The position numbers and the translations under genes are program-made. Shown here in pieces: positions 8,557 to 62,997 of a stretch of DNA of 64,000 bases (positions within the stretch are counted from its first letter, which is position 1; every line of letters begins with the position of its first letter). The stretch lies in assembly GCA_017686895.1 (NCBI GenBank), contig GCA_017686895.1_4521.1, one strand, 5' to 3'. The stretch comes from a phage. Under the pieces are notes generated by a model. That model was given only the letters and a program-made list of their open reading frames with translations. It made no database searches and was not told the origin of the DNA.

Positions 8557-8584
8557 AGTCCTATTAAAACATGAGGAGAATATT

Positions 8585-8890: not shown

Positions 8891-8891
8891 T

Positions 8892-9578: not shown

Positions 9579-10069
9579 TGATTAACAAAATATATTGGTC
9601 TAATATTGACGACGGCAATGAAGGTATTTCATACTATTCAGTAGATTGGACAGGATGTCCATCCTACTTAGTGAAACGTATTTGTCAAGAATTTAAAATC
9701 GACCAGCCAGCAGGTATTATCGTGAACAGATACATTAATGGATATCAACCTATCGATGAAGTAATACGAACAACTCAAGCTGATCTTGAAAAGTTTTTCA
9801 ATAAGTGTCAATGGATAACAGGATGGATTATATTTGTACCGTCGGTATGGTTTTTTAGTACTAAAGTAAGTGCCTTTGCCATACCAGATATTATCGCTAT
9901 CTTATTAGCATCTACTATCGTAAGTATTATTGGTGGTATTATTGGTGGAGGTACTATAGGCATCATTATTAATCTTGTTAAAAGTAGTTTACAGGAACGT
10001 AAAGACAAGATAAAGGCCAAGAATAATGAAGTTGAACGTTTTATTACCGAATGCAGGAATTTGAGATGA
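9578..10069 (+). CDS. membrane protein with ERFITECRNLR tail
   Basis: TAATG overlap start; Gly/Ile-rich TM segments; conserved tail. Confidence 0.5.
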   Translation: MINKIYWSNIDDGNEGISYYSVDWTGCPSYLVKRICQEFKIDQPAGIIVNRYINGYQPIDEVIRTTQADLEKFFNKCQWITGWIIFVPSVWFFSTKVSAFAIPDIIAILLASTIVSIIGGIIGGGTIGIIINLVKSSLQERKDKIKAKNNEVERFITECRNLR

Positions 10070-28608: not shown

Positions 28609-29082
28609 ATGTTATTATCTGGCAAATTATACAAAGAAGAAAAACAAAAATTTTATGATGCACAGAACGGTAAGTGTCCTATTTGCCACCGTGAATTAGA
28701 CCCTGATGTTCAAGGTAACCATCTTGACCACAACCACGAGTTAAACGGGCCAAAAGCCGGTAGAGTTCGTGGATTACTCTGTAATCTGTGCAACGCAGCA
28801 GAAGGCCAAATGAAGCATAAGTTCAACCGTTCTGGTCTTAAAGGTCAAAACGTTGATTACCTCGAATGGCTTGAAGCTCTTCTTGCTTATTTGAAACAAG
28901 ATTATTCTGATAATAATATCCATCCTAATTTTGTTCCAGACAAAACTAAAGAGTTCTCAAGACTAGGTAAAGAGGAAATGATGGCTGAGATGCTTCAAAG
29001 AGGATTTGAATATACTGAATCTGATACTAAAACACAATTAATAGCTTCATTCAAAAAGCAGCTTAGAAAGAGTTTAAAATGA
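28609..29082 (+). CDS. 49: endonuclease VII (Holliday junction resolvase)
   Basis: GKCPICHRELDPDVQGNHLDHNHELNGPKAGRVRGLLCNLCN ... colinear with T4 gp49, 157 aa. Confidence 0.95.
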   Translation: MLLSGKLYKEEKQKFYDAQNGKCPICHRELDPDVQGNHLDHNHELNGPKAGRVRGLLCNLCNAAEGQMKHKFNRSGLKGQNVDYLEWLEALLAYLKQDYSDNNIHPNFVPDKTKEFSRLGKEEMMAEMLQRGFEYTESDTKTQLIASFKKQLRKSLK

Positions 29083-30896: not shown

Positions 30897-31363
30897 ATTA
30901 TGATAGATTTTATCCTTGCGATTTTGTTAATGGCCCTGGTTGCAGGGTCGTTCTTTTCGTTACAGGTTGTTTGCATAAATGCGAAGGGTGTTATAATAAA
31001 TCAACATGGAACGCTAGAAATGGTGCTCCATTCACTGGAGAGACACTAGAACAATTAATTGAATGTTTGAATAATGATTATATAGAAGGATTAACTATAA
31101 CCGGAGGAGACCCTCTCTATCCTGATAACCGAGATGTTATTCACTCTGTAGTTCAAACTATTAAAAATCTTTATCCCAATAAAAGCATTTGGTTGTGGAC
31201 AGGATATAAGTTTGAAGATATTAAACAGCTAGAAATGCTTAAATATGTTGATGTTATTATTGATGGGAAGTATGAGAAAAATCTTCCGACCAAAAAGTTG
31301 TGGCGAGGATCAGATAATCAGCGACTTTGGTCAAATACCGATGGGGTGTGGAAACATGATTAA
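30893..31363 (+). CDS. nrdG: anaerobic RNR activating enzyme (radical SAM)
   Basis: CLHKCEGC radical SAM cysteine motif; ATGA overlap with nrdD. Confidence 0.9.
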   Translation: MNYDRFYPCDFVNGPGCRVVLFVTGCLHKCEGCYNKSTWNARNGAPFTGETLEQLIECLNNDYIEGLTITGGDPLYPDNRDVIHSVVQTIKNLYPNKSIWLWTGYKFEDIKQLEMLKYVDVIIDGKYEKNLPTKKLWRGSDNQRLWSNTDGVWKHD

Positions 31364-34612: not shown

Positions 34613-35170
34613 ATGACTGAACAAAAACCTAAAAATAACTATGTGAATAATAAAGAGCTTCTCGCCGCTATAATCGAGTGGAAAAAGGAGCTCTTAAATA
34701 ATAAAGACCCAAACAAAATTATTCGTCAGAATGATACCATCGGTTTAGCAATTATGCTTATCGCCGAAGGCCTGTCCAAACGTTTCAACTTTTCAGGATA
34801 TACCCAGTCTTGGAAGCAGGAGATGATTGCAGATGGGATTGAAGCCTCTATTAAGGGACTTCATAATTTCGACGAAACTAAGTACAATAACCCACATGCA
34901 TACATAACTCGAGCTTGTTTTAATGCTTTTGTCCAACGTATCAAAAAAGAACGTAAGGAAGTTGCAAAGAAATATAGTTACTTCGTTCATAATGTCTACG
35001 ACAGTCATGACGATGATATGGTAGCGTTGGTAGATGAAACGTTTATTCAAGACATCTACGATAAAATGACGCATTATGAAGAATCCGCTTATAAAGCTCC
35101 TGGGGCTGAAAAGAAGGAAGTTGTTAGCGATTCGCCTAGTTTGGATTTTTTATATGAGGATGACAATTGA
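34613..35170 (+). CDS. 55: late-transcription sigma factor gp55
   Basis: 185 aa; [28 protein letters not shown] ... matches T4 gp55 nearly throughout as I recall it. Confidence 0.95.
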
Positions 35171-36157: not shown

Positions 36158-37177
36158 ATGAAAATTTTGCACTTAGGCGACTTCCATATCGGAGTCAAAC
36201 AAGACGACCCATGGGTTCAAGATATTCAACGTGATGGTATTCGACAAGCAATTGAATACTCTAAGAAACACGGGATTAAAACTTGGATTCAGTACGGTGA
36301 TTGGTTTGACGTCCGTAAAGCAATAACACATCGTACAATGGAATTCAATCGTGAAATCGTTGATATGATTTCTAAAGCAGGCATTCACGTTCATGTCACG
36401 ATAGGAAACCATGACATGGCGTTTAAGAATACAATAACACCTAACACTGTTTCTGAATTGTTAACTCAATTTGAAAACTTTACTATTTACGAGCATCCAA
36501 CTACTGTAGATTTTGACGGATGTCTGATTGATATCGTTCCATGGATGTGTGAAGAAAATACAGGTGAAATCTTAGAGCACATCAAGACTTCTTCTGCTGC
36601 GTATTGTGTTGGTCACTGGGAACTGAACGGCTTTTATTTCTATAAAGGAATGAAGTCCCATGGGCTTGAACCTGATTTCTTAAAGACTTATAAACAAGTC
36701 TGGTCCGGCCACTTCCACACAATCTCTGAAGCTGCTAACGTCAAATATATTGGGACACCATGGACCCTTACTGCAGGTGATGAGAATGATCCTCGCGGAT
36801 TCTGGGTATTTGACACTGACGTTGAACGTATGGAATTTATTCCTAATGAAACAACATGGCATCGACGAATCACTTATCCATTTAAAGGCAAAATCAATTA
36901 TTCTGATTATACTAATCTAGCCGTACGTGTTATAGTATCAGAAATTGATTCAGAGTTGACTAAGTTTGAATCTGAACTTGAAAAAGTAGTTCACTCTCTT
37001 CGTATGGTTTCTAAAGTTGATAACAGTGTTGAATCTGATGACGACCAGGAAATCGAGATTAAATCACTTCAAGATATCATTAAAGAATATATTGACGCGA
37101 TTCCAGATATCTCAGACGAAGACAGAGAAGCGCTGGTCAAATATTCCAACGAACTTTATATTGAGGCAACACAATGA
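36158..37177 (+). CDS. 47: recombination nuclease subunit gp47 (Mre11/SbcD-like)
   Basis: MKILHLGDFHIG phosphoesterase motif I, GNHD motif; 339 aa as in T4. Confidence 0.95.
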   Translation: MKILHLGDFHIGVKQDDPWVQDIQRDGIRQAIEYSKKHGIKTWIQYGDWFDVRKAITHRTMEFNREIVDMISKAGIHVHVTIGNHDMAFKNTITPNTVSELLTQFENFTIYEHPTTVDFDGCLIDIVPWMCEENTGEILEHIKTSSAAYCVGHWELNGFYFYKGMKSHGLEPDFLKTYKQVWSGHFHTISEAANVKYIGTPWTLTAGDENDPRGFWVFDTDVERMEFIPNETTWHRRITYPFKGKINYSDYTNLAVRVIVSEIDSELTKFESELEKVVHSLRMVSKVDNSVESDDDQEIEIKSLQDIIKEYIDAIPDISDEDREALVKYSNELYIEATQ

Positions 37178-43648: not shown

Positions 43649-46360
43649 ATGAAAGAATTTTACTTAACGGTTGAACAGATTGGTGATTCAATTTTTGAAC
43701 GTTACATCGATTCTAATGGCCGTGAACGTACTCGTGAAGTAGAATATAAACCATCACTGTTTGCTCATTGTCCAGAAAGTCAGGCTACGAAATATTTCGA
43801 TATCTACGGTAAGCCGTGTACTCGTAAGTTGTTCGCTAATATGCGTGATGCCTCCCAATGGATTAAACGCATGGAAGATATCGGACTTGAAGCACTTGGC
43901 ATGGACGATTTCAAATTGGCGTATTTGTCTGACACTTATAACTATGAAATCAAATACGACCATACAAAAATTCGTGTGGCTAACTTCGACATCGAAGTAA
44001 CATCTCCGGATGGGTTCCCTGAGCCGTCACAAGCAAAACATCCAATTGATGCTATCACCCATTATGACTCAATTGATGACAGGTTCTACGTATTTGATCT
44101 ATTGAATTCTCCATATGGTAATGTAGAAGAATGGTCTATTGAAATCGCTGCTAAGCTTCAAGAACAAGGTGGTGATGAAGTTCCATCTGAAATTATCGAT
44201 AAAATCATTTATATGCCATTCGATAATGAAAAAGAATTGTTGATGGAATATCTCAACTTCTGGCAACAGAAAACTCCTGTCATTTTGACTGGATGGAACG
44301 TTGAGTCATTTGATATTCCATATGTGTATAACCGAATCAAGAATATTTTTGGCGAATCTACTGCGAAACGTTTATCACCACATCGTAAAACTCGTGTTAA
44401 AGTTATCGAAAACATGTATGGTTCTCGTGAAATCATTACATTGTTCGGTATCTCTGTTCTTGATTATATCGACCTTTACAAAAAATTCTCTTTCACAAAC
44501 CAACCGTCGTATTCTCTGGATTACATTTCAGAATTTGAATTGAATGTCGGTAAACTGAAATATGACGGTCCTATTTCTAAACTTCGTGAAAGTAATCACC
44601 AACGATATATTTCTTATAACATTATCGACGTGTATCGTGTATTGCAAATTGATGCTAAACGCCAGTTCATCAACTTGAGTTTGGACATGGGTTATTATGC
44701 TAAGATACAGATTCAATCTGTGTTTAGCCCAATTAAAACATGGGATGCTATTATTTTTAATAGCCTTAAAGAGCAGAACAAGGTGATTCCACAAGGTCGT
44801 TCTCACCCGGTTCAACCTTATCCTGGCGCTTTTGTTAAGGAACCTATTCCAAATCGATACAAATATGTAATGAGTTTCGACCTTACATCTCTGTATCCAA
44901 GTATTATTCGCCAAGTGAATATTAGCCCAGAAACAATAGCAGGAACGTTTAAAGTAGCTCCATTGCATGATTATATTAACGCAATCGCTGAACGTCCTTC
45001 AGATGTGTACAGTTGCTCTCCTAACGGCATGATGTATTATAAAGACCGTGACGGTGTAGTTCCAACCGAAATCACCAAGGTCTTTAATCAACGTAAAGAA
45101 CATAAAGGTTATATGCTTGCTGCTCAACGTAACGGTGAAATAATTAAAGAGGCATTGCATAATCCTAATCTTTCTGTTGATGAACCATTAGATGTTGATT
45201 ATCGTTTCGACTTCACTGACGAGATTAAAGAAAAGATTAAAAAGTTGTCTGCTAAATCTCTTAATGAAATGTTGTTTAGAGCTCAACGTACTGAAGTTGC
45301 AGGTATGACTGCCCAAATTAACCGTAAATTGCTCATCAACTCGCTTTATGGTGCACTTGGCAACGTTTGGTTCCGTTATTACGATTTGCGTAATGCTACT
45401 GCAATCACAACATTTGGTCAAATGGCTTTACAATGGATTGAACGTAAAGTTAATGAATATCTGAATGAAGTTTGTGGTACAGAAGGTGAAGCTTTCGTTC
45501 TTTATGGTGATACAGACTCTATTTACGTATCTGCTGATAAAATTATCGATAAGGTTGGTGAATCTAAATTCCGTGATACCAACCATTGGGTAGACTTCTT
45601 AGATAAGTTCGCACGTGAACGTATGGAACCAGCTATTGATAAAGGTTTCCGTGAAATGTGTGAATACATGAACAATAAACAACACTTAATGTTCATGGAC
45701 CGAGAAGCTATCGCTGGTCCTCCGCTTGGTTCTAAAGGTATTGGTGGATTCTGGACTGGTAAGAAACGTTATGCATTAAACGTGTGGGATATGGAAGGAA
45801 CTAGATACGCTGAGCCTAAACTCAAAATCATGGGTCTAGAGACTCAGAAATCTTCGACCCCTAAAGCAGTACAGAAAGCTCTTAAAGAATGTATTCGTCG
45901 TATGCTTCAAGAAGGTGAAGAATCATTACAAGAATATTTTAAAGAGTTTGAAAAAGAATTCCGTCAATTGAATTATATTAGCATCGCGTCGGTATCTTCT
46001 GCGAATAACATTGCTAAATATGATGTAGGTGGATTCCCTGGTCCTAAATGTCCGTTCCATATTCGTGGAATTCTGACATATAACCGAGCTATCAAAGGTA
46101 ATATTGATGCTCCACAAGTTGTAGAAGGTGAAAAAGTATATGTTCTGCCTTTACGTGAAGGAAACCCATTCGGTGATAAATGTATCGCATGGCCTTCTGG
46201 TACTGAAATCACAGATTTAATTAAAGACGACGTACTTCATTGGATGGACTACACTGTTCTCCTTGAGAAGACATTTATTAAACCACTTGAAGGATTCACA
46301 TCAGCAGCGAAACTCGATTACGAGAAGAAAGCATCTCTGTTCGATATGTTCGATTTTTGA
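43649..46360 (+). CDS. 43: DNA polymerase gp43 (family B, 3'-5' exonuclease)
   Basis: 903 aa; exo motifs FDIE and YNIIDV, polymerase motifs DxxSLYPS, KILINSLYG, YGDTDS. Confidence 0.97.
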   Translation: MKEFYLTVEQIGDSIFERYIDSNGRERTREVEYKPSLFAHCPESQATKYFDIYGKPCTRKLFANMRDASQWIKRMEDIGLEALGMDDFKLAYLSDTYNYEIKYDHTKIRVANFDIEVTSPDGFPEPSQAKHPIDAITHYDSIDDRFYVFDLLNSPYGNVEEWSIEIAAKLQEQGGDEVPSEIIDKIIYMPFDNEKELLMEYLNFWQQKTPVILTGWNVESFDIPYVYNRIKNIFGESTAKRLSPHRKTRVKVIENMYGSREIITLFGISVLDYIDLYKKFSFTNQPSYSLDYISEFELNVGKLKYDGPISKLRESNHQRYISYNIIDVYRVLQIDAKRQFINLSLDMGYYAKIQIQSVFSPIKTWDAIIFNSLKEQNKVIPQGRSHPVQPYPGAFVKEPIPNRYKYVMSFDLTSLYPSIIRQVNISPETIAGTFKVAPLHDYINAIAERPSDVYSCSPNGMMYYKDRDGVVPTEITKVFNQRKEHKGYMLAAQRNGEIIKEALHNPNLSVDEPLDVDYRFDFTDEIKEKIKKLSAKSLNEMLFRAQRTEVAGMTAQINRKLLINSLYGALGNVWFRYYDLRNATAITTFGQMALQWIERKVNEYLNEVCGTEGEAFVLYGDTDSIYVSADKIIDKVGESKFRDTNHWVDFLDKFARERMEPAIDKGFREMCEYMNNKQHLMFMDREAIAGPPLGSKGIGGFWTGKKRYALNVWDMEGTRYAEPKLKIMGLETQKSSTPKAVQKALKECIRRMLQEGEESLQEYFKEFEKEFRQLNYISIASVSSANNIAKYDVGGFPGPKCPFHIRGILTYNRAIKGNIDAPQVVEGEKVYVLPLREGNPFGDKCIAWPSGTEITDLIKDDVLHWMDYTVLLEKTFIKPLEGFTSAAKLDYEKKASLFDMFDF

Positions 46361-46400: not shown

Positions 46401-47036
46401 ATGAAAACTACACCAATCACTATCGCTATTGACGCAATCGTAAAACAAGCTTCTTCTTTGGCTACTATGGCCAAAGTAATTAGTCAAAACCCTGCTCGTT
46501 ATAATGCTATTCTAGAAACTCTTCGACGCCCTGGACTGAGTAATTATGAAAGCCGAGTAATTATTACAGGTGTTGGTAAGAACGCTAATATCGCAACTAA
46601 AGCTTCCGAGACTTTTGCTTCACTAGGTATTCCTAGCATGTATTTGAACACCGGGCATTATTCTCATGGCGACGCAGGGTTTATTGCACCTAATGATGTA
46701 TTAGTTCACATCAGTCGTTCTGGTAAGACTGAAGAAATGATAGGTGTTGCTAAACATCTTCGTATGATTCGTCCTCAGGTTAAACAGATTCTGTTACATT
46801 GTAACCCTGACATTCCGCAAGAATACGAAGCTCTTTTTGATTATACGTTCTGTACAGGCATCGCGGTAGAGGTTGATGAGAATTCTCTGGCTCCGACCAT
46901 GTCCACTACATTGTTGTTAGCGCTTATCGATACGTTTGCTATCAACCTTTCGTCTGAACGTGGATTTACCTCTAATGACTTCCTTAAGTTCCACCCTGGT
47001 GGTGCACTAGGTGCCATGTTACGAGGCGAACAATGA
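46401..47036 (+). CDS. SIS-domain phosphosugar isomerase (KdsD/GutQ-like arabinose-5-phosphate isomerase without CBS domains)
   Basis: RVIITGVGKNANIATK, HISRSGKTEE and C-terminal FLKFHPGGALGAMLRG match the KdsD-type SIS domain as I recall it; 211 aa. Confidence 0.8.
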   Translation: MKTTPITIAIDAIVKQASSLATMAKVISQNPARYNAILETLRRPGLSNYESRVIITGVGKNANIATKASETFASLGIPSMYLNTGHYSHGDAGFIAPNDVLVHISRSGKTEEMIGVAKHLRMIRPQVKQILLHCNPDIPQEYEALFDYTFCTGIAVEVDENSLAPTMSTTLLLALIDTFAINLSSERGFTSNDFLKFHPGGALGAMLRGEQ

Positions 47037-47176
47037 AAGCAATAACAATAGGACTTTTACTATTGATGCTTGTCATGACTATCTACTGGAGCTTAACGGC
47101 TCCAGTAATGATTCCGACTCTTATAATCGGATGGATTATGATTGGACTACAAACAAAGTATGAATGCTTTAACTAG
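47033..47176 (+). CDS. small two-helix membrane protein (47 aa)
   Basis: MKAITIGLLLLMLVMTIYWSLTAPVMIPTLIIGWIMIGLQTKYECFN; ATGA overlap with SIS gene; hand-identified. Confidence 0.35.
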   Translation: MKAITIGLLLLMLVMTIYWSLTAPVMIPTLIIGWIMIGLQTKYECFN

Positions 47177-47189
47177 AATAGTGTACAAT
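47165..47189 (+). promoter_or_regulatory. candidate MotA-type middle promoter
   Basis: TGCTTTA box, 12 bp, TACAAT, about 28 bp upstream of ATG 47218. Confidence 0.45.
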
Positions 47190-47217
47190 ACACCTACTTA
47201 CCAATGAGGACCACAAC

Positions 47218-48903
47218 ATGAAAAAAGCTGTTATTCTTGGTGCTGGACTGGCAACTCGTTTGTATCCAATAACGCACCATATTCCTAAGGTGCTTGTTAA
47301 CTATAAACAAGACACTATTCTGAGCAATTTGTATACAATTTATTCTGACCTTGGTGCAGATGAAATTATTGTAGTAGTTCATTCAAAATTTGTTGAAACT
47401 GTTCGAGCTTATTGTGAGCAAGAAGGGTTCAATGTGACTATTCGTACAGTTGATGAAGCGTATGGTTCTGCTTATGCTCTTGCTAAATTATACAAAGATT
47501 TAGATGGCCATAACGTAATTGTTAACTGGTGTGATATTATTCCTGATTTTGGTTCATGGTCTTGGAATGTTAACGCAATCTATGTTAAGGGTGATGAATG
47601 TCGATATAATTTCGATGGTGAAAATATCACTAACGTAGGTTCAACAGGCGGTAATGTTGTAGGAATTTATCAGTTCAAAGACTGGGAATTCTATATGGGT
47701 TCTACTGATGAGGAAATTCATGAATACTGCAAAGGGCGTGATTTCGTAGAATTCCTTTACGGCAGTGCATTCAATAAATCAGAGCTTATGAATCTAATTG
47801 ATTTAGGTGATATGCCTAAACTTGAAAAAGCTCATGAAGTTCGTGAACTTAATCGTAGTTTTAATGCAGTTGAAATTGGTGAAGAAACTGTAACTAAATT
47901 CGCATTAACCGAACAGGGACGAGCTCTTCAGAAAGATGAGATTTCGTGGTATCTTAAAGTGAAATCAGATTCAGTTCCTCAGTTAGTTTCTGTTAATGAA
48001 AATAACTTTGAAATGGAACGCATTAAAGGTAAGCCAGCATTTGAATATATTAAATCCAAATCAAGTCTTGCTCGTCCACAAATTGTTGATGCAATTTTAG
48101 ATGCACTGAAATTCAGCACAGACACTTATTTTGTAAGTCCTGAAACTGTTCGTCGTGATTTCACTAAAGAATTCTATACGAAAGTTATTGATCGTTGTGA
48201 AAGCATTCAACCATTGATTGATTCATTTGGTAAAATCACACATGTGAACTACACTAAGATTGGACGTCTGAAGCCAATGCTGAAACAAGCTTTAGAACAC
48301 CTTATTCGTTATCATAACCGTTCTCAGGGACAGTACTCTGTTATTCATGGTGACCCGAACTTCAGTAATACTATGATTACTGATAACGGCGAAGTCAAGT
48401 TTATCGACCCTCGTGGATATTTTGGCGAAACCAAGATTTACGGGCCAAAATTGTACGATGAAGCTAAAGTGCTTTATGCTGTTTCAGGTTATGATGAATT
48501 CAATGCTAATCCGACCTGGGGACAGTTTACTATTGATGAAACAACTTGTAATGTGACTATTAACATCAATCCATTAATTTACAAATATGGAAAGATGAGT
48601 TCGTTTAACGAGTATCATCATTTGGCGGTGGCAATTATCTGGATTGCATTAGGTGGTTATTTCAAGAATAATCCACTTAAAGCGGTAGCCGCATATTATA
48701 AAGGTATGGAACTTCTGACTAAGCAATTACGCAACATGGGCCGTGTACTTCAAGACGGCTCTATTAGTTATGACGTAGCAGAACCTGTAACGGCTACTCT
48801 GATTACAAAAAATCCTGGTAAATGGGTACTAACTGATAAAGAAACTGGTGTTTCCTATCGTCCAATCGGTGGCGATATCACTCATCAATGGGAACGAATC
48901 TAA
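47218..48903 (+). CDS. bifunctional sugar-phosphate nucleotidyltransferase / APH-ChoK-fold kinase
   Basis: N-terminal AVILGAGLATRLYPITHHIPKVLV (sugar nucleotidyltransferase G-x-G-x-R-L-x-P-x-T motif); C-terminal VIHGDPNFSNTMI and FIDPRGYFG (aminoglycoside/choline kinase Brenner and DxE-like motifs). Confidence 0.75.
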   Translation: MKKAVILGAGLATRLYPITHHIPKVLVNYKQDTILSNLYTIYSDLGADEIIVVVHSKFVETVRAYCEQEGFNVTIRTVDEAYGSAYALAKLYKDLDGHNVIVNWCDIIPDFGSWSWNVNAIYVKGDECRYNFDGENITNVGSTGGNVVGIYQFKDWEFYMGSTDEEIHEYCKGRDFVEFLYGSAFNKSELMNLIDLGDMPKLEKAHEVRELNRSFNAVEIGEETVTKFALTEQGRALQKDEISWYLKVKSDSVPQLVSVNENNFEMERIKGKPAFEYIKSKSSLARPQIVDAILDALKFSTDTYFVSPETVRRDFTKEFYTKVIDRCESIQPLIDSFGKITHVNYTKIGRLKPMLKQALEHLIRYHNRSQGQYSVIHGDPNFSNTMITDNGEVKFIDPRGYFGETKIYGPKLYDEAKVLYAVSGYDEFNANPTWGQFTIDETTCNVTININPLIYKYGKMSSFNEYHHLAVAIIWIALGGYFKNNPLKAVAAYYKGMELLTKQLRNMGRVLQDGSISYDVAEPVTATLITKNPGKWVLTDKETGVSYRPIGGDITHQWERI

Positions 48904-49289
48904 TGCACCGTGTAGAAAACATGCTTAATCTTTGTTTTGATGTCGATGATTGTATAACAGAGTGGAATAACAATCGTGATTACGTGAACTTCAAACCAGA
49001 CGTCGAAATGGTGTCTGCCATTAATGCCCTGTATGATGCAGGGCATACCATAACGCTTTACACTGCTCGTGGTATGAAGTCAGTAGGTCCTGGTCGTATA
49101 GCAATTGACATTCTCCCAAGTCTGATTCAGAACTTGGCAAACATTGGCTTGAAGTACCATAATTTGCTAACACATAAACCAGTATATGATTGGATTATCG
49201 ACGACAAAGCTATGCGTCCTGACGAATTCAAAGCTCTTATGAATAAAGGCGAATTCGAAACATTTAAATCATATAAACCGAATCTATAA
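48903..49289 (+). CDS. HAD-superfamily phosphatase
   Basis: Motif I FDVDDCIT (DxDxT), motif III-like K-x-DWIIDDK; TAATG overlap with upstream gene. Confidence 0.65.
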   Translation: MHRVENMLNLCFDVDDCITEWNNNRDYVNFKPDVEMVSAINALYDAGHTITLYTARGMKSVGPGRIAIDILPSLIQNLANIGLKYHNLLTHKPVYDWIIDDKAMRPDEFKALMNKGEFETFKSYKPNL

Positions 49290-49335
49290 TAATTTAAGTA
49301 AGACCTGCAAAAACCATCGCATCAATTAACGCGAG

Positions 49336-50505
49336 ATGCAAAAAATGAATACTTTTAAAATCGGAACGAATTTTGATTTAGCTCTTCTTGATAAAATCGT
49401 AGAGCTCAATAAAACCTATCCTAATAGCTTGATAAACGAAGTATATGGCTCTACAAGAGAAATGGCTTTTGTAGCAGCCAGACCTGATTTTAGGCTTCCT
49501 GACGTTGACAAAAAGATGTTAGAAGATTACGTTAAACGTTGTAACGAATTAGGTATTTGCTTTAACTATACACTCAACACGATAAATCCTGGTTCAAAAA
49601 GAGAACTAGTTGAGTGGAAGAAGAAAGCTATTCAGGATTATGTTCAGTATCTTTGGTCAATAGGCGTATGGCGTATTACTATCGCTAACCCTGTTGTTAT
49701 GGAAATTGTTCGTGAAGTCAATAAAGATATTGAGATTGAAGTTTCAACAATTCTACATGTCGATGCGGTAACTCAAATCAAATACTTACATGACCAATAT
49801 AACATCAAAAAGGTCTGTTGCGGAATTCATAAGAACCGTTCAGTTTCTTTCCTGAAGCGTGCAGCAGAGTTTTGCAATAAGAACAATATAATATTTGAAG
49901 TTCTTGTAAATGAGTTCTGTTCTAATGCTGGTAAAGGGTATACAACACATTGTAGTTATCGTGACTCTTGCTATATTTTCCATAGTACTGATGTTACAGC
50001 TGATGATGCTAAATCCTTAAATGGATATCCAATGCAACACTGCATTAAAGCTCGTGATACAGACCCATTTAACTGGTTGAGAACTCGTTTTGTTCGTCCT
50101 CAAGATTTGAAACTTTATAATGATATTGGTATCACTCAATTCAAAGTTTCAGGACGTACAGGTAGCACAGACTACATTTTGAAAGTTCTTGAAGCATACG
50201 CTTCTGAAAAGTTTGAAGGTAATTTGTTAGAACTGTGGAAGCCTTTAGAGACTATTTTCACTCTTGAAAATGAGACTGAGTTTTCACATACAGTAAATAT
50301 TGAAACCTCTTTGTTAGATGGCTTTTTAGAAAAAAGGTGGTTCAGACATCCAGATTTTGATTGTGCTAATGAAATCTGTGGGTCAACGTGTACATATTGT
50401 GAAAGGTATTATAAACGTCAATTATCTAAAAACGGGTTAGCAGAAAACTCCATATCTATTATTGATATAACTAACTCTGATGACGCTTTGAGGTACCCGG
50501 AATGA
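49336..50505 (+). CDS. Cys-rich protein with peptidase-U32-like features (tentative)
   Basis: EVLVNEFCSNAGKGYTTHCSYRDSC resembles the U32 signature region; many cysteines including C-terminal CGSTCTYC (Cx3Cx2C); family not confirmed. Confidence 0.3.
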   Translation: MQKMNTFKIGTNFDLALLDKIVELNKTYPNSLINEVYGSTREMAFVAARPDFRLPDVDKKMLEDYVKRCNELGICFNYTLNTINPGSKRELVEWKKKAIQDYVQYLWSIGVWRITIANPVVMEIVREVNKDIEIEVSTILHVDAVTQIKYLHDQYNIKKVCCGIHKNRSVSFLKRAAEFCNKNNIIFEVLVNEFCSNAGKGYTTHCSYRDSCYIFHSTDVTADDAKSLNGYPMQHCIKARDTDPFNWLRTRFVRPQDLKLYNDIGITQFKVSGRTGSTDYILKVLEAYASEKFEGNLLELWKPLETIFTLENETEFSHTVNIETSLLDGFLEKRWFRHPDFDCANEICGSTCTYCERYYKRQLSKNGLAENSISIIDITNSDDALRYPE

Positions 50506-50741
50506 TTTCTAGAAAAAGTTTTAATTATAAACTTAACGAAGAGATTTTGACTATGAAACTGAACACTAACGAACAAATTCTTAAAAAGGCCCTTATGGGC
50601 CTGTTTGAAACCAAAGCGGCTAAAGTGATTAAAGAACCTGTTCAATTGGAATACTACACTGATGCATTCCTTCATAGTGTTCTTGGAAGTATAGATTCTG
50701 AAGCTTTACGTTATATCAACATTGTCAAGAAATTCAAATAA
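50502..50741 (+). CDS. hypothetical protein
   Basis: 79-aa ORF, ATGA overlap. Confidence 0.4.
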   Translation: MISRKSFNYKLNEEILTMKLNTNEQILKKALMGLFETKAAKVIKEPVQLEYYTDAFLHSVLGSIDSEALRYINIVKKFK

Positions 50742-50764
50742 GCTTTATGAATTGAGTATATAAT
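50742..50764 (+). promoter_or_regulatory. candidate middle promoter (approximate coordinates)
   Basis: GCTTTA box, 11 bp, TATAAT, about 20 bp upstream of ATG 50784. Confidence 0.4.
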
Positions 50765-50783
50765 AAATTGTATTGAGGTAAAT

Positions 50784-51500
50784 ATGGGAAAACATAACAC
50801 AATGAAATATATCAAAGCCGCAGATTTTCAAACCGCATTTAAAGCAGTCAATCGTGAAATTTTAGAAAACCCCGAATTCGTAACTGATTCTCGTATTGGA
50901 CGTTGTAATGAAATTGGGTCTATGACAGTAGTTGTTGACACTCCATCATCATTCAAAATGACCGACCCACGTATTAACCGCATCTCTTATGAATATGCCG
51001 AAGACTTCTGGAAGTTTATGATTTCTGGTGGTACCAACGCAGAAGAAGCGTTTAAGGCATATCCTAATGTCGCTAAATTTATTTCTAAACCAAAATCAGA
51101 TGTTTTGCCGGCGAACTTCAACACTTTCTATGGTCCTCGCATTGCGGCCCAATTACCAACTCTTCTAAAAGAACTTAAAGAAAAACCTAACTCTCGAAGA
51201 GTTGTGTTCCAAATTCTAGAAAGTTCTGATCAGGCTTTGCTTGATTCGGACGAAACACTTGAATATCCATGTACTGACTCAGTAACTTATTATATTCGTG
51301 ATGGTAAGCTTTATACCCACTGTCATATGCGTTCTCAGAACTGTGCTGTTGTTATGCAGTTGGATTTTTATCTCCAAGGAAAATTACTTCATTATATCGC
51401 TAACGAATGCGGTGTAGAAGTTGGTGATTATACTCATACCATGGTAAGTGCCCATGTGTTTGAACGTGATTTTGATTATGTTAAAGGATTCCTTGACTAA
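50784..51500 (+). CDS. 42: thymidylate-synthase-fold pyrimidine hydroxymethylase (dCMP hydroxymethylase-like, divergent)
   Basis: PNSRRVVFQI, catalytic-Cys region YPCTDSVTYYIRDGKLYTHCHMRSQN and VSAHVFERDF align to the PDSRRGIMIY / MCTNTVQYLIRD..NMRSND / GSLHVYSRHF blocks of T4 gp42 as I recall them. Confidence 0.65.
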   Translation: MGKHNTMKYIKAADFQTAFKAVNREILENPEFVTDSRIGRCNEIGSMTVVVDTPSSFKMTDPRINRISYEYAEDFWKFMISGGTNAEEAFKAYPNVAKFISKPKSDVLPANFNTFYGPRIAAQLPTLLKELKEKPNSRRVVFQILESSDQALLDSDETLEYPCTDSVTYYIRDGKLYTHCHMRSQNCAVVMQLDFYLQGKLLHYIANECGVEVGDYTHTMVSAHVFERDFDYVKGFLD

Positions 51501-52399
51501 TGGCTATTTTCCGCGTACCAATCTTGAGTATGCGGTCTTATGAAACTGGACAGTATGCTATCCTTAAGGATGGCAACTTCCAACTTCATTTGCACCGTGC
51601 TAATCCAGGTGATGTGATTACATATCCACGTAATGCATCTGATATTAAAGAATGCGAACGTCTTTTCCCAGAATTTAAGTTTGTTCCATTATGGTATAAA
51701 GATAACGCGTATAACACTCGTAAATATTTCTGGTCTGAAAATGAATTTGTGGTTGATTCATTAATTGCTTATTATGATTGTGATTTTCTAATCACAGATA
51801 TCACCGGATATGACGGCGCTTTTGATGTGGAATTCAATTTCAATATCACTGCAGACCCTAATAAACCACGTTTTTATATTGACGAATTCTTAAAAACTGA
51901 TATGTTGTCGGTTAATCGTTCACTTCAAACTACTGTGTTGAATGAACGTCAAAAAGAAGTGCTGGTTAACGCAGGTGCAGATGGTAATAAGATTATCGTA
52001 ACGCAGAAAGTTATACGTCCTTCCATCATGCAGCGTCTTGTAGGTGATTTGGCTCCTATTCATCTAGATGGTATTTTTCATCCATTTCGAATTAGTGACC
52101 CGTGCTATCGTTTTGAACAAGTGGTTGAATGTGCAATTCAATTAGGCCAACCGCTTTATATAACCGATCCAAATAATAGCTTCGACAGAAATAAGTATCC
52201 TGAAGAAGCATTGATTCGAATTTTTAAACCAACTAAAACTGAGTACTATCAAATTCTTAAAGGACGTCCGAAGATTCAATATTTCGAAAATCCTGAAGAA
52301 GTATTCCATCCAGGTCTTGGTGAGTTCATCTACTTTAATGCTTTAATTTCTTCGCCGTATAATATACCTAAATATGAAGATGTCGTAATCGAGGAATAA
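51500..52399 (+). CDS. hypothetical protein at the beta-gt position
   Basis: 299-aa ORF with no recognised motif; TAATG overlap with hydroxymethylase; occupies the slot of T4 beta-glucosyltransferase. Confidence 0.3.
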   Translation: MAIFRVPILSMRSYETGQYAILKDGNFQLHLHRANPGDVITYPRNASDIKECERLFPEFKFVPLWYKDNAYNTRKYFWSENEFVVDSLIAYYDCDFLITDITGYDGAFDVEFNFNITADPNKPRFYIDEFLKTDMLSVNRSLQTTVLNERQKEVLVNAGADGNKIIVTQKVIRPSIMQRLVGDLAPIHLDGIFHPFRISDPCYRFEQVVECAIQLGQPLYITDPNNSFDRNKYPEEALIRIFKPTKTEYYQILKGRPKIQYFENPEEVFHPGLGEFIYFNALISSPYNIPKYEDVVIEE

Positions 52400-52400
52400 A

Positions 52401-52949
52401 ATGGCTAAAATTATTTTAGTAGATGGCCCGGATAATGCTGGTAAAACAACTTTCATTAATGACATAATGGAAATTAGTGAAAGATATGTAAAGATTGATT
52501 TCCCTAAACGAACAGTTGATGGACGTTTCGATGTTAAGTCTCGAAATGAAGTTGGCTGTTTCGAAACTATGTTGAATTATTTAGACCCTACTAAGATTTA
52601 TCTATTAGACCGTGGATATATTAGTAACTGGGTTTATGGACGTATTCGACAAGATGCGGACTCGGTTCTTGACGTTTATGAACAGGATTATGTTCGTCTT
52701 TGCCAAAACCATGATGTGTTCACAATTATTTTAACACGTAACGAAATGACTGAAAGTTTTGAAGACGACCTTATTACTTTGTCTTCATTCGGTTTTAATA
52801 CAGTAATTTCACATTTTGAAGAGTTTGCAATTCATAACGAAATCCAAACGTATCAATTACTTAATCATGATGGTGCTAACAAAGTTATAGGATTTAATGC
52901 AAGCGAACGTAATAATTTGATTACAGAAATCATCAAATGGGCTCGTTAA
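52401..52949 (+). CDS. thymidylate-kinase-like P-loop nucleotide kinase
   Basis: Walker A ILVDGPDNAGKTT and DRGYISNWVYG (Tmk DR-Y-like motif). Confidence 0.6.
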   Translation: MAKIILVDGPDNAGKTTFINDIMEISERYVKIDFPKRTVDGRFDVKSRNEVGCFETMLNYLDPTKIYLLDRGYISNWVYGRIRQDADSVLDVYEQDYVRLCQNHDVFTIILTRNEMTESFEDDLITLSSFGFNTVISHFEEFAIHNEIQTYQLLNHDGANKVIGFNASERNNLITEIIKWAR

Positions 52950-53047: not shown

Positions 53048-54220
53048 ATGTCTGATTTAAAATCTCGTCTGATTAAAGCTTCTACTTCTAAAATGACTGC
53101 AGACTTGACTAAGTCTAAGCTGTTTAATAATCGTGATGAAGTCCCTACTCGTATTCCAATGTTGAATATTGCACTAGGTGGTGCACTGAATGCAGGGTTG
53201 CAATCAGGCTTAACTATTTTTGCTGCTCCTTCTAAACATTTTAAAACGTTGTTTGGGCTGACCATGGTTGCAGCATATATGAAGAAATATAAAGATGCAA
53301 TCTGTTTGTTTTATGACTCAGAATTCGGTGCTTCAGAATCTTACTTCCGTTCGATGGGTGTTGATTTAGACCGTGTAGTTCATACTCCGATTCAATCCGT
53401 CGAACAACTTAAAGTTGATATGACTAATCAGCTTGACGCGATTGAACGCGGCGATAAAGTTATTATCTTTATCGATTCAATCGGTAATACTGCATCTAAG
53501 AAAGAAACCGAAGATGCGTTGAACGAGAAAGTTGTAGGTGATATGTCTCGTGCTAAGGCACTTAAATCTCTTTTCCGTATTGTGACTCCTTATCTGACTA
53601 TTAAAGATATTCCGTGTGTTGCAATTAACCATACTGCAATGGAAATTGGCGGATTGTATCCTAAAGAGATTATGGGCGGTGGTACAGGTATTCTTTATTC
53701 CGCCAACACGGTATTTTTTATCTCTAAACGTCAGGTTAAAGAAGGTACAGAATTGACCGGTTATGACTTCACGTTGAAAGCAGAAAAATCTCGTACAGTT
53801 AAAGAGAAATCTACTTTCCCGATCACGGTTAATTTCGACGGTGGTATCGACCCATTCAGTGGCTTGTTAGAAATGGCAACTGAAATCGGTTTTGTGGTTA
53901 AGCCTAAAGCTGGTTGGTATGCTCGCGAATTCCTTGACGAAGAAACAGGTGAAATGATTCGTGAAGAAAAATCATGGCGTGCTAAAGCTACTGATTGTGT
54001 AGAATTCTGGGGACCTTTGTTTAAACATAAGCCTTTCCGTGACGCAATTGAAACTAAATATAAACTAGGTGCTATCTCTTCTATTAAAGAAGTTGATGAC
54101 GCTGTTAACGACCTTATTAATTGCAAAGCAACAACTAAAGTTCCGGTTAAAACTTCTAATGCTCCGTCTGCAGCAGATATAGAAAACGACCTTGACGAAA
54201 TGGAAGATTTCGATGAATAA
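53048..54220 (+). CDS. uvsX: RecA-like recombinase UvsX
   Basis: MSDLKSRLIKASTSKMTADLTKSKLFNN ... Walker A and L1/L2 regions; 390 aa, colinear with T4 UvsX. Confidence 0.97.
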   Translation: MSDLKSRLIKASTSKMTADLTKSKLFNNRDEVPTRIPMLNIALGGALNAGLQSGLTIFAAPSKHFKTLFGLTMVAAYMKKYKDAICLFYDSEFGASESYFRSMGVDLDRVVHTPIQSVEQLKVDMTNQLDAIERGDKVIIFIDSIGNTASKKETEDALNEKVVGDMSRAKALKSLFRIVTPYLTIKDIPCVAINHTAMEIGGLYPKEIMGGGTGILYSANTVFFISKRQVKEGTELTGYDFTLKAEKSRTVKEKSTFPITVNFDGGIDPFSGLLEMATEIGFVVKPKAGWYAREFLDEETGEMIREEKSWRAKATDCVEFWGPLFKHKPFRDAIETKYKLGAISSIKEVDDAVNDLINCKATTKVPVKTSNAPSAADIENDLDEMEDFDE

Positions 54221-58046: not shown

Positions 58047-58340
58047 ATGAAAAAGTTATCATTGGCAGCAATCTTACTTGCAGTATCATGTGCACCGGCT
58101 CCAGTTACGGCAGGTTATGATAAAGACCTCTGTGAGTGGTCAATGACTGCAAATCAAGAAGATGTTGAACAACAAATCTTCTCTGATATCATGAACATCA
58201 CTAAACGAGACCGTCCTAATATGGTTAATAAAGTTGTTGAACAACTTAAGTCTGGCGGTATCATGCAGTACAATTATGTTTTGTATTGTGACCCTAATTT
58301 CGATAACAAAGATATCGTAACCGAAATCACAGGTGAATAA
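58047..58340 (+). CDS. sp: spackle periplasmic protein
   Basis: Signal peptide then AGYDKDLCEWSMTANQEDVEQQI ... SGGIMQYNYVLYCD, matching T4 Sp as I recall it. Confidence 0.85.
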   Translation: MKKLSLAAILLAVSCAPAPVTAGYDKDLCEWSMTANQEDVEQQIFSDIMNITKRDRPNMVNKVVEQLKSGGIMQYNYVLYCDPNFDNKDIVTEITGE

Positions 58341-58341
58341 T

Positions 58342-58992
58342 ATGATTTATTACATGCACAAAAACGCACCATTTAAATATGGTAAATTTCCTAATGCACA
58401 ATGTTATAATATAACGCCGAACGAAAATAATAACGGATATCATATTGGTGTAATTTTTGTAATTGTTAAAGATAACGAAATCGTTGCCTGGGCCGATTTT
58501 AAAGGTACAACATATGATGTTAATCCTGTGCCTTTCACATATTACAATATAATGGATTTGGCATATGATTATAATTGGTTTAATCATGACGCGTTGGCTC
58601 ATATTGAAGGTGTAGGATTTGACATCTCTTATTCTAGCTATTCATTATGTCCTATGAGCAGGGCTCATGGTAAAGATGCATCATATCTTTCATTTCGGAA
58701 ACGTGTAAACTTCAAACGTAGTACAGAGTATGTTGGCGGACTCTTTGTTAAAGATAATAAAATAACCCGTATTAGTTATCCTTTAAGTGTAGGTCAAAAA
58801 GATGTTGATGTTGATTTAGACTTAACTGAAAATAACATTAATCGTATTGCTTCTGTATATTTTGATATCGATGAAAAAATTGTAGTGTGTGGATACGAAT
58901 TACCACCTGAAGAAAAGGCTGAAGCAGTTGAAGTCGAATTAGAAATTTCTGTTGATGACCAAATATTTAATGCATTTATGAATCGAGGTTAA
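58342..58992 (+). CDS. hypothetical protein
   Basis: ATG 58342 two nt after sp stop. Confidence 0.5.
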   Translation: MIYYMHKNAPFKYGKFPNAQCYNITPNENNNGYHIGVIFVIVKDNEIVAWADFKGTTYDVNPVPFTYYNIMDLAYDYNWFNHDALAHIEGVGFDISYSSYSLCPMSRAHGKDASYLSFRKRVNFKRSTEYVGGLFVKDNKITRISYPLSVGQKDVDVDLDLTENNINRIASVYFDIDEKIVVCGYELPPEEKAEAVEVELEISVDDQIFNAFMNRG

Positions 58993-60934: not shown

Positions 60935-61022
60935 AATATCTCCTTAGTTACCTATTATTTATTACGCTTTATAAAATTAATGTTAGAATTAACTCTCTTA
61001 TACTGAATTGAAAGGAAAAATA

Positions 61023-61544
61023 ATGGCGCACTTTAATGAATGTTCACAACTTATTTCTGGTGTTGATAAAGCAGAAGAAGTTTATTTTAATGCTCTGATT
61101 CACGAAGATAAAGACCCACTTCAGGTAATGCTTGATATGCAGAAATCTTTACAGGTTCGTCTGGCAAATGACAAGCCTGAACATAACAAACATCCTGATG
61201 AATTGGCTACTGCTGGTGATGTTGTTGATTGGCTGCGTAATCAGAAAGATTATATTGATGATGAATTCCGTGAACTGTTGACTTCACTTGGTGGTATGAG
61301 CAATGGTGAAAAAGCCGCCAGCAGTGTATGGAAGCCTTGGAAAGCACAACATGCTGAATATCGAAATCGTCGTATCGATGAACTGTCTCCTGAAGACCAG
61401 CTTGAAATTAAATTTGAGATGATTGATATTCTTCATTTCGTTCTGAATATGTTCCAAGGTCTGGGTCTTTCTGCTGAAGAAATCTTTAAACTTTACTACT
61501 TGAAAAACCAACACAACTTTGAACGTCAGGATAATGGTTACTAA
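61023..61544 (+). CDS. 56: dCTP pyrophosphatase gp56 (MazG-like)
   Basis: MAHFNECSQLISGVDKAEE ... ETAGDVVDWLRNQKDYIDDEFRELLTSLG resembles T4 gp56 throughout. Confidence 0.9.
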   Translation: MAHFNECSQLISGVDKAEEVYFNALIHEDKDPLQVMLDMQKSLQVRLANDKPEHNKHPDELATAGDVVDWLRNQKDYIDDEFRELLTSLGGMSNGEKAASSVWKPWKAQHAEYRNRRIDELSPEDQLEIKFEMIDILHFVLNMFQGLGLSAEEIFKLYYLKNQHNFERQDNGY

Positions 61545-62357: not shown

Positions 62358-62533
62358 ACAGAATAGTAAAATGGTTTAAAAGCTGGAATGATGGAGTCGG
62401 ACCAGAAGATTGGTTAGATGCTCTTGAAGAGAATATGGCTAAAGAATTCCAGAAACATGAAGAAAAACTCGTCGAAGATGAAGGCGAACGTATTGTAAAA
62501 CTTTATATGGGTGAACCATCGAGGAAATTATAA
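62354..62533 (+). CDS. small acidic ORF (59 aa)
   Basis: ATGA overlap upstream and TAATG overlap downstream; hand-identified below track cut-off. Confidence 0.3.
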   Translation: MNRIVKWFKSWNDGVGPEDWLDALEENMAKEFQKHEEKLVEDEGERIVKLYMGEPSRKL

Positions 62534-62997
62534 TGGATGCTATGTTATTTAAAATGTATTTGCTTGAAGCCAAGTCATTTAAACATATACCAGTAGAAGA
62601 TAAGACTCCACTAGAAATAGCTATTCTCATTAACAAAAGTCTAAATAATCCGCAATATATCGTAGAAGAATTCTGCAAATTGCAGATTCCTAAAGGTTAC
62701 AAAATTCGTGTAGAGCGAGTTGGAGCTATTACTCATTCTAAAAATTCTCCGTTTAGTCTTGAAGAAGGCATAAAGGACTTAGGGTATGAATCTACAGAAA
62801 ATGCTGTTTATGTGAATCCTGAAAAGCGTTTAGACCTGTTTGAAAAGCGAGACCATACGTATTTTGCCAAAAAATACTTTATTACATCATTAGCAGATTT
62901 AATCCATTTGCAACGAGCTATTTGGAAATTTTTTAAGACAAAAGGTGTAGCACTAGAAACATTCTCTGAACCTGCTAGTTTTTATTTAGGTGAATAA
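62533..62997 (+). CDS. hypothetical protein
   Basis: 154-aa ORF. Confidence 0.5.
   Translation: MDAMLFKMYLLEAKSFKHIPVEDKTPLEIAILINKSLNNPQYIVEEFCKLQIPKGYKIRVERVGAITHSKNSPFSLEEGIKDLGYESTENAVYVNPEKRLDLFEKRDHTYFAKKYFITSLADLIHLQRAIWKFFKTKGVALETFSEPASFYLGE

Follow-up and report, generated by a model that had tools for sequence, protein, structure and literature searches.

We analyzed a 64-kb stretch of phage DNA (contig GCA_017686895.1_4521.1, in the following called the window) with respect to the gene island at positions 46401–52949 of its + strand. Judged from comparisons with characterized relatives, the island corresponds, with a probability of about 93%, to the Mosigvirus gene cluster of the RB69/HY126 type for DNA carrying arabinosylated 5-hydroxycytosine (5hoC). 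The system itself is already known and has been dissected experimentally in the phages RB69, HY126 and DLP3. The role of one of its products, a protein of the U32 family, is the one open part. A preliminary description based on the letters of the window had proposed a hydroxymethylcytosine (hmC) pathway and had left it in doubt whether the gene set matches a described one. This doubt is resolved by the match to the RB69/HY126 cluster.

Organization and identity of the island

Nine tightly packed open reading frames (ORFs), all on the + strand, lie between the genes for the gp43 DNA polymerase and UvsX (lengths in amino acids, aa):

43649–46360, + strand: gp43 DNA polymerase, flank of the island
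46401–47036, + strand: SIS protein, arabinose-5-phosphate isomerase, ortholog of RB69 gp55 (211 aa; 97% identity to RB69 gp55)
47033–47176, + strand: hydrophobic membrane ORF of 47 aa, RB69 gp54, PHROG 3610 (E = 2e-26)
47218–48903, + strand: nucleotidyltransferase/kinase fusion of the AfhE type (561 aa; 99% identity to RB69 gp53 + gp52)
48888–49289, + strand: HAD-type phosphatase of the AfhF type, RB69 gp51 (133 aa; 99% identity to RB69 gp51)
49336–50505, + strand: Cys-rich U32-family TIM-barrel protein, RB69 gp50 (389 aa; Pfam Peptidase_U32)
50502–50741, + strand: ORF of 79 aa, RB69 gp49, PHROG 8601 (E = 2e-50)
50784–51500, + strand: predicted ThyA-fold 5-hydroxy-dCMP synthase, ortholog of RB69 gp48 (238 aa; Pfam Thymidylat_synt)
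51500–52399, + strand: 299-aa protein, putative first DNA arabinosyltransferase AraT1, RB69 gp46:47, PHROG 3891
52401–52949, + strand: Tmk-like P-loop nucleotide kinase, RB69 gp45 (182 aa; 99% identity to RB69 gp45)
53048–54220, + strand: UvsX, flank of the island

Eight of the nine ORFs had been listed in the preliminary description and are real, on the + strand and at these positions; the 79-aa ORF at 50502–50741 had been overlooked. The domain calls made there (SIS without CBS domains, NTP_transferase plus a weak kinase fold, Peptidase_U32 and Thymidylat_synt) agree with Pfam and NCBIfam searches. The island does stand in place of the imm/42/beta-gt interval of T4, which holds imm.1, imm, 42, beta-gt and segA.

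All nine proteins were 97–99% identical to RB69 gp45–gp55, first in pairwise and then in bulk comparison. In island order, their counterparts are gp55, gp54, gp53 + gp52, gp51, gp50, gp49, gp48, gp47 + gp46 and gp45. The 6.5 kb of island DNA recur with 95–99% identity in 152 phage records, nearly all of them from Escherichia/Shigella Straboviridae. Because of the 97–99% identity of the island proteins to RB69, the window is judged to derive from a Mosigvirus. The RB69 gp45–gp55 and HY126 Afh clusters agree with the window in gene content and gene order between gp43 and uvsX, with 97–99% protein identity. They share the catalytic signature of the hydroxylase, and near-identical structures have been solved for hydroxylase and phosphatase. 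We found no difference of substance between the window and the system treated by Thomas (2018), Mahler (2025), He (2026) and Lee (2026).

Differences are confined to individual genes in the database records. The RB69 record NC_004928 splits two genes (RB69p046/047 and RB69p052/053), which are single, intact ORFs of 299 and 561 aa in the window and in other Mosigviruses. These splits have been ascribed to sequencing errors (PMC13326640), and the intact genes of the window agree with this. The 79-aa ORF is intact in the window, whereas in HY126 (PP658200.1, 5661–5899) it is matched only as two pieces (residues 1–40 and 43–79), with a 40-aa ORF annotated.

More distant versions are found in the Acinetobacter phage DLP3 (gp76–gp83) and the E. 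coli Dhakavirus VR5. Both share the fusion, HAD, ThyA-fold, AraT1-type and Tmk-like proteins with the window at 36–80% identity, and DLP3 also has a clear homolog of the SIS isomerase. The U32 gene and the small ORF following it are missing from both. DLP3 possesses two further transferases and makes a tri-arabinoside, whereas VR5 has kept imm.

With this island, RB69-like coliphages mask their cytosines with arabinose and thereby escape restriction enzymes and CRISPR. Many of these phages are part of phage therapy collections, and the modification is targeted by type IV systems such as BrxU. Its correct recognition matters for annotation, as the public labels are still wrong: island genes often appear as 'RNA polymerase binding protein', 'GlmU', 'phosphoheptose isomerase', 'dCMP hydroxymethylase' or 'peptidase'.

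Base chemistry

The ThyA-fold protein shares 99% identity with RB69 gp48 and approximately 97% with the proteins in PDB entries 9IQC, 9IR2 and 9IQU, but only 25% with T4 gp42. In an alignment with E. coli ThyA and T4 gp42, residues E160, C163, N186 and D194 correspond to ThyA L143E, C146, D169N and N177D. The catalytic cysteine (C163) is kept, and E160 and D194 are as in dCMP-specific enzymes. T4 gp42 retains an aspartate at the position of ThyA D169; this feature of gp42-type hydroxymethylases was not found in the aligned window enzyme, which has an asparagine (N186). The D169N exchange has been described as a predictor of 5-hydroxy-dCMP synthases (PMC13326640). By these residues, the window enzyme is predicted to be a flavin- and O2-dependent 5-hydroxy-dCMP synthase and not a hydroxymethylase.

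The chemistry of the base has been worked out for RB69. Thomas et al. 2018 (PMC6024577) detected arabinose in RB69 DNA, flagged the eight-gene module of this interval together with ORF003c as probable genes for its synthesis and assumed hmC as the base. Using tandem mass spectrometry (MS/MS) and nuclear magnetic resonance (NMR), Lee et al. 2026 (PMC13326640) identified the base as 5-hydroxycytosine bearing an α-D-arabinofuranose followed by a β-D-arabinofuranose, attached through an ether bond at C5. Mono- and di-arabinofuranosyl-5-hydroxy-dC are both present in RB69 DNA (PMC13326640). RB69 gp48 produces 5-hydroxy-dCMP from dCMP, incorporating 18O from O2, and binds flavin mononucleotide loosely; gp159, a dNMP kinase encoded by a separate gene, phosphorylates 5-hydroxy-dCMP to the diphosphate (PMC13326640). 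Mono- and di-arabinosyl-dC were also found in Mosigvirus NP, and the hmC assignment was called erroneous there (PMC13390438).

These data bear directly on the proposal of the preliminary description, in which a divergent gp42-type hydroxymethylase makes hmC, arabinose 5-phosphate is converted via free arabinose and arabinose 1-phosphate to NDP-arabinose, and the sugar is placed on the hydroxymethyl group. Arabinosyl-hmC was also what the first RB69 study proposed (PMC6024577), and the enzyme does have a ThyA fold with the dCMP-specifying exchanges N177D and L143E, the latter being common to hydroxymethylases. Moreover, Table 1 of PMC13326640 still gives an order of dephosphorylation before phosphorylation. 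The base fragment of RB69, however, has a mass of 128.05 and not of 142.06 in MS/MS, and according to NMR the sugar sits directly on the C5 oxygen. Incorporation of 18O2 and binding of flavin by RB69 gp48, the D169N exchange in the window enzyme where T4 gp42 has Asp, and the correction in PMC13390438 point the same way, as does the kinase-then-phosphatase order reported for the HY126 enzymes. For RB69, the hmC proposal is already refuted; for the window, D169N and the orthology with RB69 gp48 point to 5hoC, and we regard hmC as exceedingly improbable.

Compared with the glucosyl-hmC system of T4 (gp42, α-gt, β-gt, gp56 and gp1), the 5hoC system follows the same logic of a dCTPase, a ThyA-fold enzyme acting on dCMP, a kinase and post-replicative glycosylation, and it occupies the same genomic position between gene 43 and uvsX. 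T4, however, hydroxymethylates by means of methylene-tetrahydrofolate, whereas the window type would hydroxylate with flavin and O2 (D169N). T4 attaches glucose to the CH2OH group; in the window type the sugar is an ether-linked pentofuranose whose donor is made by the phage. A dCTPase is needed to keep dCTP out of the phage DNA, and the one that the preliminary description had noticed is indeed present:

61008–61544, + strand: gp56-type dCTPase (PHROG 173 NTP pyrophosphohydrolase, E = 4e-45; Pfam dUTPase_2)

The reported absence of α-gt between genes 55 and 47 is borne out as well: gp55 (34613–35167) and gp47 (36158–37174) are only 990 nucleotides apart, which leaves no space for this gene. 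An annotated close relative has merely three small ORFs there.

Sugar route and glycosyltransferases

The preliminary description had correctly postulated an activated arabinose that is made by the phage and put on a C5-oxygenated cytosine, and its assignments of the SIS, fusion and HAD proteins to this route are upheld by their RB69/HY126 orthologs. The SIS protein is of the KdsD type without the CBS half. It matches Pfam SIS and the NCBIfam models for KpsF/GutQ and KdsD in the SIS half only, with the profile covered at positions 47–202 of 328. Conversion of ribulose 5-phosphate to arabinose 5-phosphate has been assigned to the RB69 gp55-type protein (PMC13326640). The fusion protein is 96% identical to that of HY126 and matches Pfam NTP_transferase at residues 3–99, with weak kinase-fold matches at residues 354–409. 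The HAD protein is near-identical to PDB entry 9IQW (E = 8e-88) and belongs to the NCBIfam EcbF/BcbF subfamily of capsule phosphatases. The true start of its gene is likely at 48903, as in RB69.

The sugar-route orthologs of HY126 are 96–100% identical to the window proteins. As far as the work of He et al. 2026 is reported in PMC13326640, the AfhE kinase of HY126 makes arabinose 1,5-bisphosphate from arabinose 5-phosphate. The HAD enzyme AfhF then removes the 5-phosphate, and AfhE makes UDP-arabinofuranose (He et al. 2026, as relayed in PMC13326640). According to the same account, the kinase acts before the phosphatase, so that the route through free arabinose suggested in the preliminary description does not hold.

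The 299-aa protein was suspected to be the transferase in the place of β-gt. It is 99% identical to RB69 gp47 + gp46, the proposed first arabinosyltransferase, and its gene adjoins that of the hydroxylase. It showed no similarity to T4 β-gt (best BLASTP E = 3.7), and no sequence match was found in the PDB; a GT-B-like fold and the role of first transferase have been proposed for AraT1 (PMC13326640). A tblastn search of the 64-kb window yielded no homolog of the second arabinosyltransferase (RB69 gp3 type). In RB69, gp3 adjoins rIIA; this region lies beyond the window, and the neighboring RB69 gp39 likewise has no homolog in it. The missing gp3 homolog reflects the limits of the window and does not show that the phage is without this gene.

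The Tmk-like protein matches the PHROG 761 thymidylate kinases (E = 2e-45), and its gene accompanies the hydroxylase genes in DLP3, VR5 and KLB31. We infer that it may be a dedicated kinase for 5-hydroxypyrimidine nucleotides. The 47-aa ORF has homologs in RB69, HY126, KLB31, VR5 and the 42–imm intergenic region of T4. Since counterparts exist in VR5, KLB31 and T4, it is not specific to the pathway and is probably a conserved gene of T-even phages outside the arabinose route. In T4 (NC_000866), the unannotated match lies at 6231–6320 on the minus strand (60% identity over 30 residues); this suggests that a conserved small ORF has been left unannotated there.

The island was previously regarded as self-contained. 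In fact, the dCTPase gene lies 8 kb away, the gp159 kinase of RB69 is encoded by a separate gene and the gp3-type transferase has no homolog in the window. The 47-aa membrane protein, formerly listed as part of the island, has its counterpart in T4.

Several points weigh against the assignment of the island to the arabinosyl-5hoC system. It is built on 97–99% identity to characterized orthologs, and the sugar route is detailed here at second hand, from what PMC13326640 relates of He et al. 2026. What the Tmk-like kinase acts on is putative, as are the functions of the U32 protein and of the two small ORFs of 79 and 47 aa. In addition, single transferases have been reported to be inactive on 5hoC DNA, the first transfer being unreconstituted in vitro for any phage (PMC13326640).

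Proposed pathway

Based on these comparisons we propose the following pathway for the arabinosylated DNA of the phage. The cycle would start with the dCTPase (61008–61544), which by homology should return dCTP to dCMP. The ThyA-fold enzyme would then hydroxylate dCMP at C5 with flavin and O2, as shown for the 99% identical RB69 gp48. Kinases, probably including the Tmk-like protein, would take 5-hydroxy-dCMP to the triphosphate for incorporation by the polymerase. In parallel, the SIS isomerase would convert ribulose 5-phosphate to arabinose 5-phosphate, and the C-terminal APH/ChoK-fold kinase domain of the fusion protein would phosphorylate it to arabinose 1,5-bisphosphate. The HAD phosphatase would yield arabinose 1-phosphate, from which the N-terminal nucleotidyltransferase domain of the fusion protein would form UDP-arabinofuranose with UTP. 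In the next step the 299-aa transferase is proposed to add the first α-arabinofuranose to the 5-hydroxyl group. The β-arabinofuranose would finally be added by a second, RB69 gp3-type transferase encoded outside the window.

Family features of the U32 protein

The U32 protein scores above the curated cutoff of Pfam Peptidase_U32. Of the four paralogs in E. coli, RlhA gave the best match to a profile built from 34 homologs (hhalign E = 2.3e-5 over 200 columns), whereas the matches to the others are weak or partial (TrhP, E = 2e-3; UbiU, E = 0.013; UbiV, none). Residues E193, C206 and C212 align with E161, C169 and C176 of RlhA and with E162, C170 and C177 of TrhP, the glutamate and two cysteines that are essential in these proteins (PMC6599085). 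These three residues and seven further cysteines are invariant in the 34 homologs (46–85% identity).

The phage U32 protein nevertheless differs from RlhA, TrhP, UbiU and UbiV and forms a subfamily of its own, with a different cysteine spacing and an additional C-terminal CX4CX3CX2C motif. Its invariant cysteines C195, C206, C212 and C236 are spaced unlike C169, C176, C193 and C232 of UbiU, and the third and fourth ligands of a four-Cys 4Fe-4S site align poorly.

RlhA, TrhP and UbiU/UbiV are U32 proteins implicated in O2-independent, prephenate-dependent hydroxylation (PMC5727448, PMC6599085, PMC10990095). RlhA, whose essential Glu/Cys/Cys set is kept by the phage protein, is responsible for ho5C2501 in 23S rRNA. 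In E. coli, TrhO, which requires O2, is paired with the prephenate-dependent U32 protein TrhP in forming the 5-hydroxyuridine of tRNA; likewise, the island holds an O2-dependent C5 hydroxylase together with a U32 protein.

Distribution of the U32 gene

Phage records with the U32 gene number 222; their hosts are without exception Enterobacterales or Shewanella, and identity is at least 80% throughout. AfhE-type genes occur in 377 and the ThyA-fold hydroxylase in 378 phage records, each including 57 records of Acinetobacter phages; none of these 57 Acinetobacter records with the cluster has the U32 gene. Among isolated phages, the U32 gene is limited to carriers of the 5hoC cluster. As DLP3 and VR5 have the core cluster without it, the U32 gene is accessory and not part of the arabinose route. 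Together with the 79-aa ORF, it forms an accessory unit inserted after the HAD gene and before the ThyA-fold gene. The protein is unusually conserved: in the Shewanella phage Thanatos, U32 is 82% identical compared with 54% for AfhE. The 79-aa ORF, which is truncated to 47–58 aa in many metagenomic copies, looks dispensable.

In the Klebsiella phage KLB31, the ORF between the U32 and ThyA-fold genes encodes an AroQ chorismate mutase (Pfam CM_2, 38.5 bits with a cutoff of 27; PDB entry 1YBZ, E = 3e-7). Homologs of this enzyme are present in 48 phage records from eleven genera. Among the matches listed, the gene adjoins a ThyA-like gene, and where the neighbor is annotated it lies between U32 and ThyA. 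Chorismate mutase makes prephenate. No chorismate mutase is encoded in the window, and therefore the host enzymes PheA and TyrA would supply prephenate. The 79-aa ORF was tried as a chorismate mutase candidate and rejected: it has no Pfam hit at E ≤ 10, BLASTP against the KLB31 enzyme gives E = 6.7, and in Yersinia phage TG1 the two genes stand next to each other.

More than 280 metagenomic U32 homologs were found. Our analysis covered 58 loci (8 assembly-derived and 50 from a viral contig collection), with about 10 kb inspected on each side and all ORFs searched with iterated profiles. A ThyA-fold gene with the hydroxylase signature is located near U32 in 15 of 15 T4-like loci and in 0 of 43 other viral loci, one of which (L037) has an ordinary thymidylate synthase. 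De-replication at 70% U32 identity resulted in 28 lineages, and 26 of them contain no ThyA-fold gene within about 10 kb. Among these 26 U32-only lineages, a Tmk-like kinase is present in 21 and an AraT1-type transferase, whose gene often overlaps that of U32, in 18; AfhE-like genes (7/26), SIS genes (6/26) and chorismate mutase (3/26) are found less frequently. Chorismate mutase and/or DAHP synthase adjoin U32 in six of all 28 lineages, the T4-like one included. Fusions of DAHP synthase and chorismate mutase near U32 were confirmed by Pfam and NCBIfam, with DAHP synthase models scoring far above KDO8P synthase.

The gene neighborhoods of some non-T4 loci are worth describing individually. In one Logan contig (SRR13394437, locus L010, 6996–12804) the order is AraT1-type transferase, SIS, AfhE-like, U32, DAHP synthase and NAD-dependent epimerase, so that an arabinose-type pathway, U32 and a shikimate-pathway enzyme stand together with no ThyA-fold gene within 10 kb. 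In another (SRR33454321, locus L009, 5777–14179) U32 lies near an AraT1-type transferase, a weak TAGT-like match, Gly_transf_sug, dUTPase/DCD and UDP-galactopyranose mutase; such a combination hints at bases modified by galactofuranosyl groups, as in Rhizobium phage RL38J1, with no ThyA-fold hydroxylase nearby. On phage-like contigs with polymerases of the Pol III α type, U32 comes directly behind a dCMP deaminase gene (L006/L007, ~7450–9090); in L011/L012 (~7970–10000) it comes after a radical-SAM gene and an AraT1-type transferase.

Proposed function of the U32 protein

Taken together, the family features and gene neighborhoods suggest that the U32 protein may hydroxylate deoxycytidine nucleotides or DNA at C5 in a prephenate-dependent, O2-independent manner, a proposal to which we give even odds. 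The simplest reading of the neighborhoods would be that the subfamily provides the 5-hydroxyl group to which the glycosyltransferase attaches its sugar. The reaction probably takes place on nucleotides, because a small nucleotide kinase is the constant neighbor of U32 and dCMP deaminase accompanies it in some contigs. The proposed substrate, a deoxynucleotide or DNA, differs from the RNA or quinone substrates of the E. coli proteins. The chorismate mutase or DAHP synthase added by related phages leads to prephenate, in analogy to the prephenate dependence of TrhP.

In Mosigviruses, U32 would serve as a reserve for the O2-dependent ThyA-fold enzyme, just as E. coli has TrhP to back up TrhO. The phage would thus have two routes to 5-hydroxycytosine, the flavin- and O2-dependent ThyA-fold enzyme in aerobic growth and an Fe-S U32 enzyme in the anoxic gut. 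The window has genes for NrdD, an anaerobic ribonucleotide reductase, and its activase NrdG (29079–31360, + strand; 99% identical to phage CAU_ECP01). The phage is therefore equipped to replicate without O2, a situation in which the characterized hydroxylase cannot work.

The proposed hydroxylase function of U32 has to be read with some reservations. Hydroxylation in vitro has been demonstrated for none of the U32 proteins (PMC10990095). The absence of ThyA-fold genes covers only about 10 kb on each side of the metagenomic U32 genes. The parallel between the Acinetobacter absences and host aerobiosis is suggestive only, since these phages are a single clade and E. coli Dhakaviruses also lack U32.

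In PMC13326640, RB69 gp50 is labeled only as 'sugar or heterocycle reductase', and the RlhA/TrhP pathways of pyrimidine hydroxylation are mentioned as unrelated to the ThyA-fold enzyme. The reductase label, given in Table 1 of that paper, corresponds to a function on the sugar side, either as a sugar or heterocycle reductase or as an enzyme of UDP-arabinose biosynthesis. The position of the gene inside the cluster, between HAD phosphatase and hydroxylase, fits such a function, as do the AfhE-like genes in 7 of the 26 U32-only lineages and the annotation in phage ChristianSchoenbein of the BASEL collection ('putative enzyme involved in UDP-arabinose biosynthesis'). DLP3 and VR5, however, have the full sugar route without U32, and DLP3 has been shown to make tri-arabinosyl-5hoC. 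Of the U32-only lineages, 19 have no AfhE-like gene and 20 no SIS gene; the recurrent partners are chorismate mutase, DAHP synthase, AraT1-type transferase and nucleotide kinase. Furthermore, no characterized member of the U32 family is a reductase. We consider a role in the sugar route unlikely.

A hydroxylase of the RlhA/TrhP type could also act on rRNA or tRNA of host or phage and merely reside in a plastic region, without relation to DNA modification. RlhA, the 23S rRNA ho5C2501 synthase, is indeed the closest characterized paralog, and plasticity of the region from polymerase to uvsX has been described (PMC6024577). With 389 aa, however, the phage protein is much shorter than RlhA (653 aa), and isolated phages with U32 all carry the 5hoC cluster. 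An RNA substrate would also be difficult to reconcile with the AraT1-type DNA glycosyltransferase genes beside U32, often overlapping it, in 18 of 26 non-T4 lineages and the Tmk-like nucleotide kinase nearby in 21 of 26. This renders RNA hydroxylation quite unlikely and somewhat less probable than a function on the sugar side.

Finally, the chorismate mutase and DAHP synthase genes near U32 might feed prephenate to the synthesis of carboxy-S-adenosylmethionine (Cx-SAM) by CmoA, for 5-carboxymethylcytosine, instead of to U32. Phages do use prephenate in this way (PMC12783734). Iterated profile searches, however, detected no homolog of CmoA or CmoB in the 58 U32 loci or in the window, and for this reason Cx-SAM does not explain the prephenate genes near U32. 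The T4-like carriers of chorismate mutase, for example Serratia phage LC53, are documented or predicted arabinosyl-5hoC phages. A link to Cx-SAM is thus very improbable.

If U32 is indeed an O2-independent C5 hydroxylase, the other viral lineages, at least 26 in number, would be a large unrecognized group that makes glycosylated 5-hydroxypyrimidine DNA by an oxygen-free route. Many uncultured phages whose DNA modifications are related would come into view. The hydroxylase would also explain how such phages, as gut dwellers equipped with an anaerobic ribonucleotide reductase, multiply in the absence of O2, and would provide the first substrate from a DNA pathway for the poorly understood U32/prephenate chemistry.

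Middle promoters and further genes

Candidate middle promoters had been noticed before the fusion gene and the hydroxylase gene. The former has the full consensus and the latter one mismatch; a further site precedes the Tmk-like gene:

47163–47189, + strand: T4-type middle promoter match before the fusion gene (MotA box aaTGCTTTA-N12-TACAAT)
50740–50764, + strand: middle-promoter-like site before the ThyA-fold gene (one-mismatch MotA box aaGCTTTA-N11-TATAAT)
52339–52363, + strand: exact match to the middle-promoter pattern just upstream of the Tmk-like gene

The pattern TGCTTYA-N11-13-TANNNT has 15 exact matches in the window compared with 1.76 expected, a number reached in none of 100 shuffles (0/100). 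Twelve of the 15 are on the + (coding) strand; the site at 50740–50764 is not among the exact matches. MotA-type middle promoters would drive the island genes at least in part. Two matches to the pattern lie inside island genes, at 46616 and 48470.

Two genes downstream of uvsX were also recognized. A 219-aa protein (58333–58992, + strand) matches Pfam AdfA, anti-DarT factor A (E = 1e-120), and the phage therefore carries a counter-defense gene against DarTG. A 154-aa protein encoded at 62533–62997 (+ strand) matches the Pfam T4_MRH-like family (E = 7e-38).

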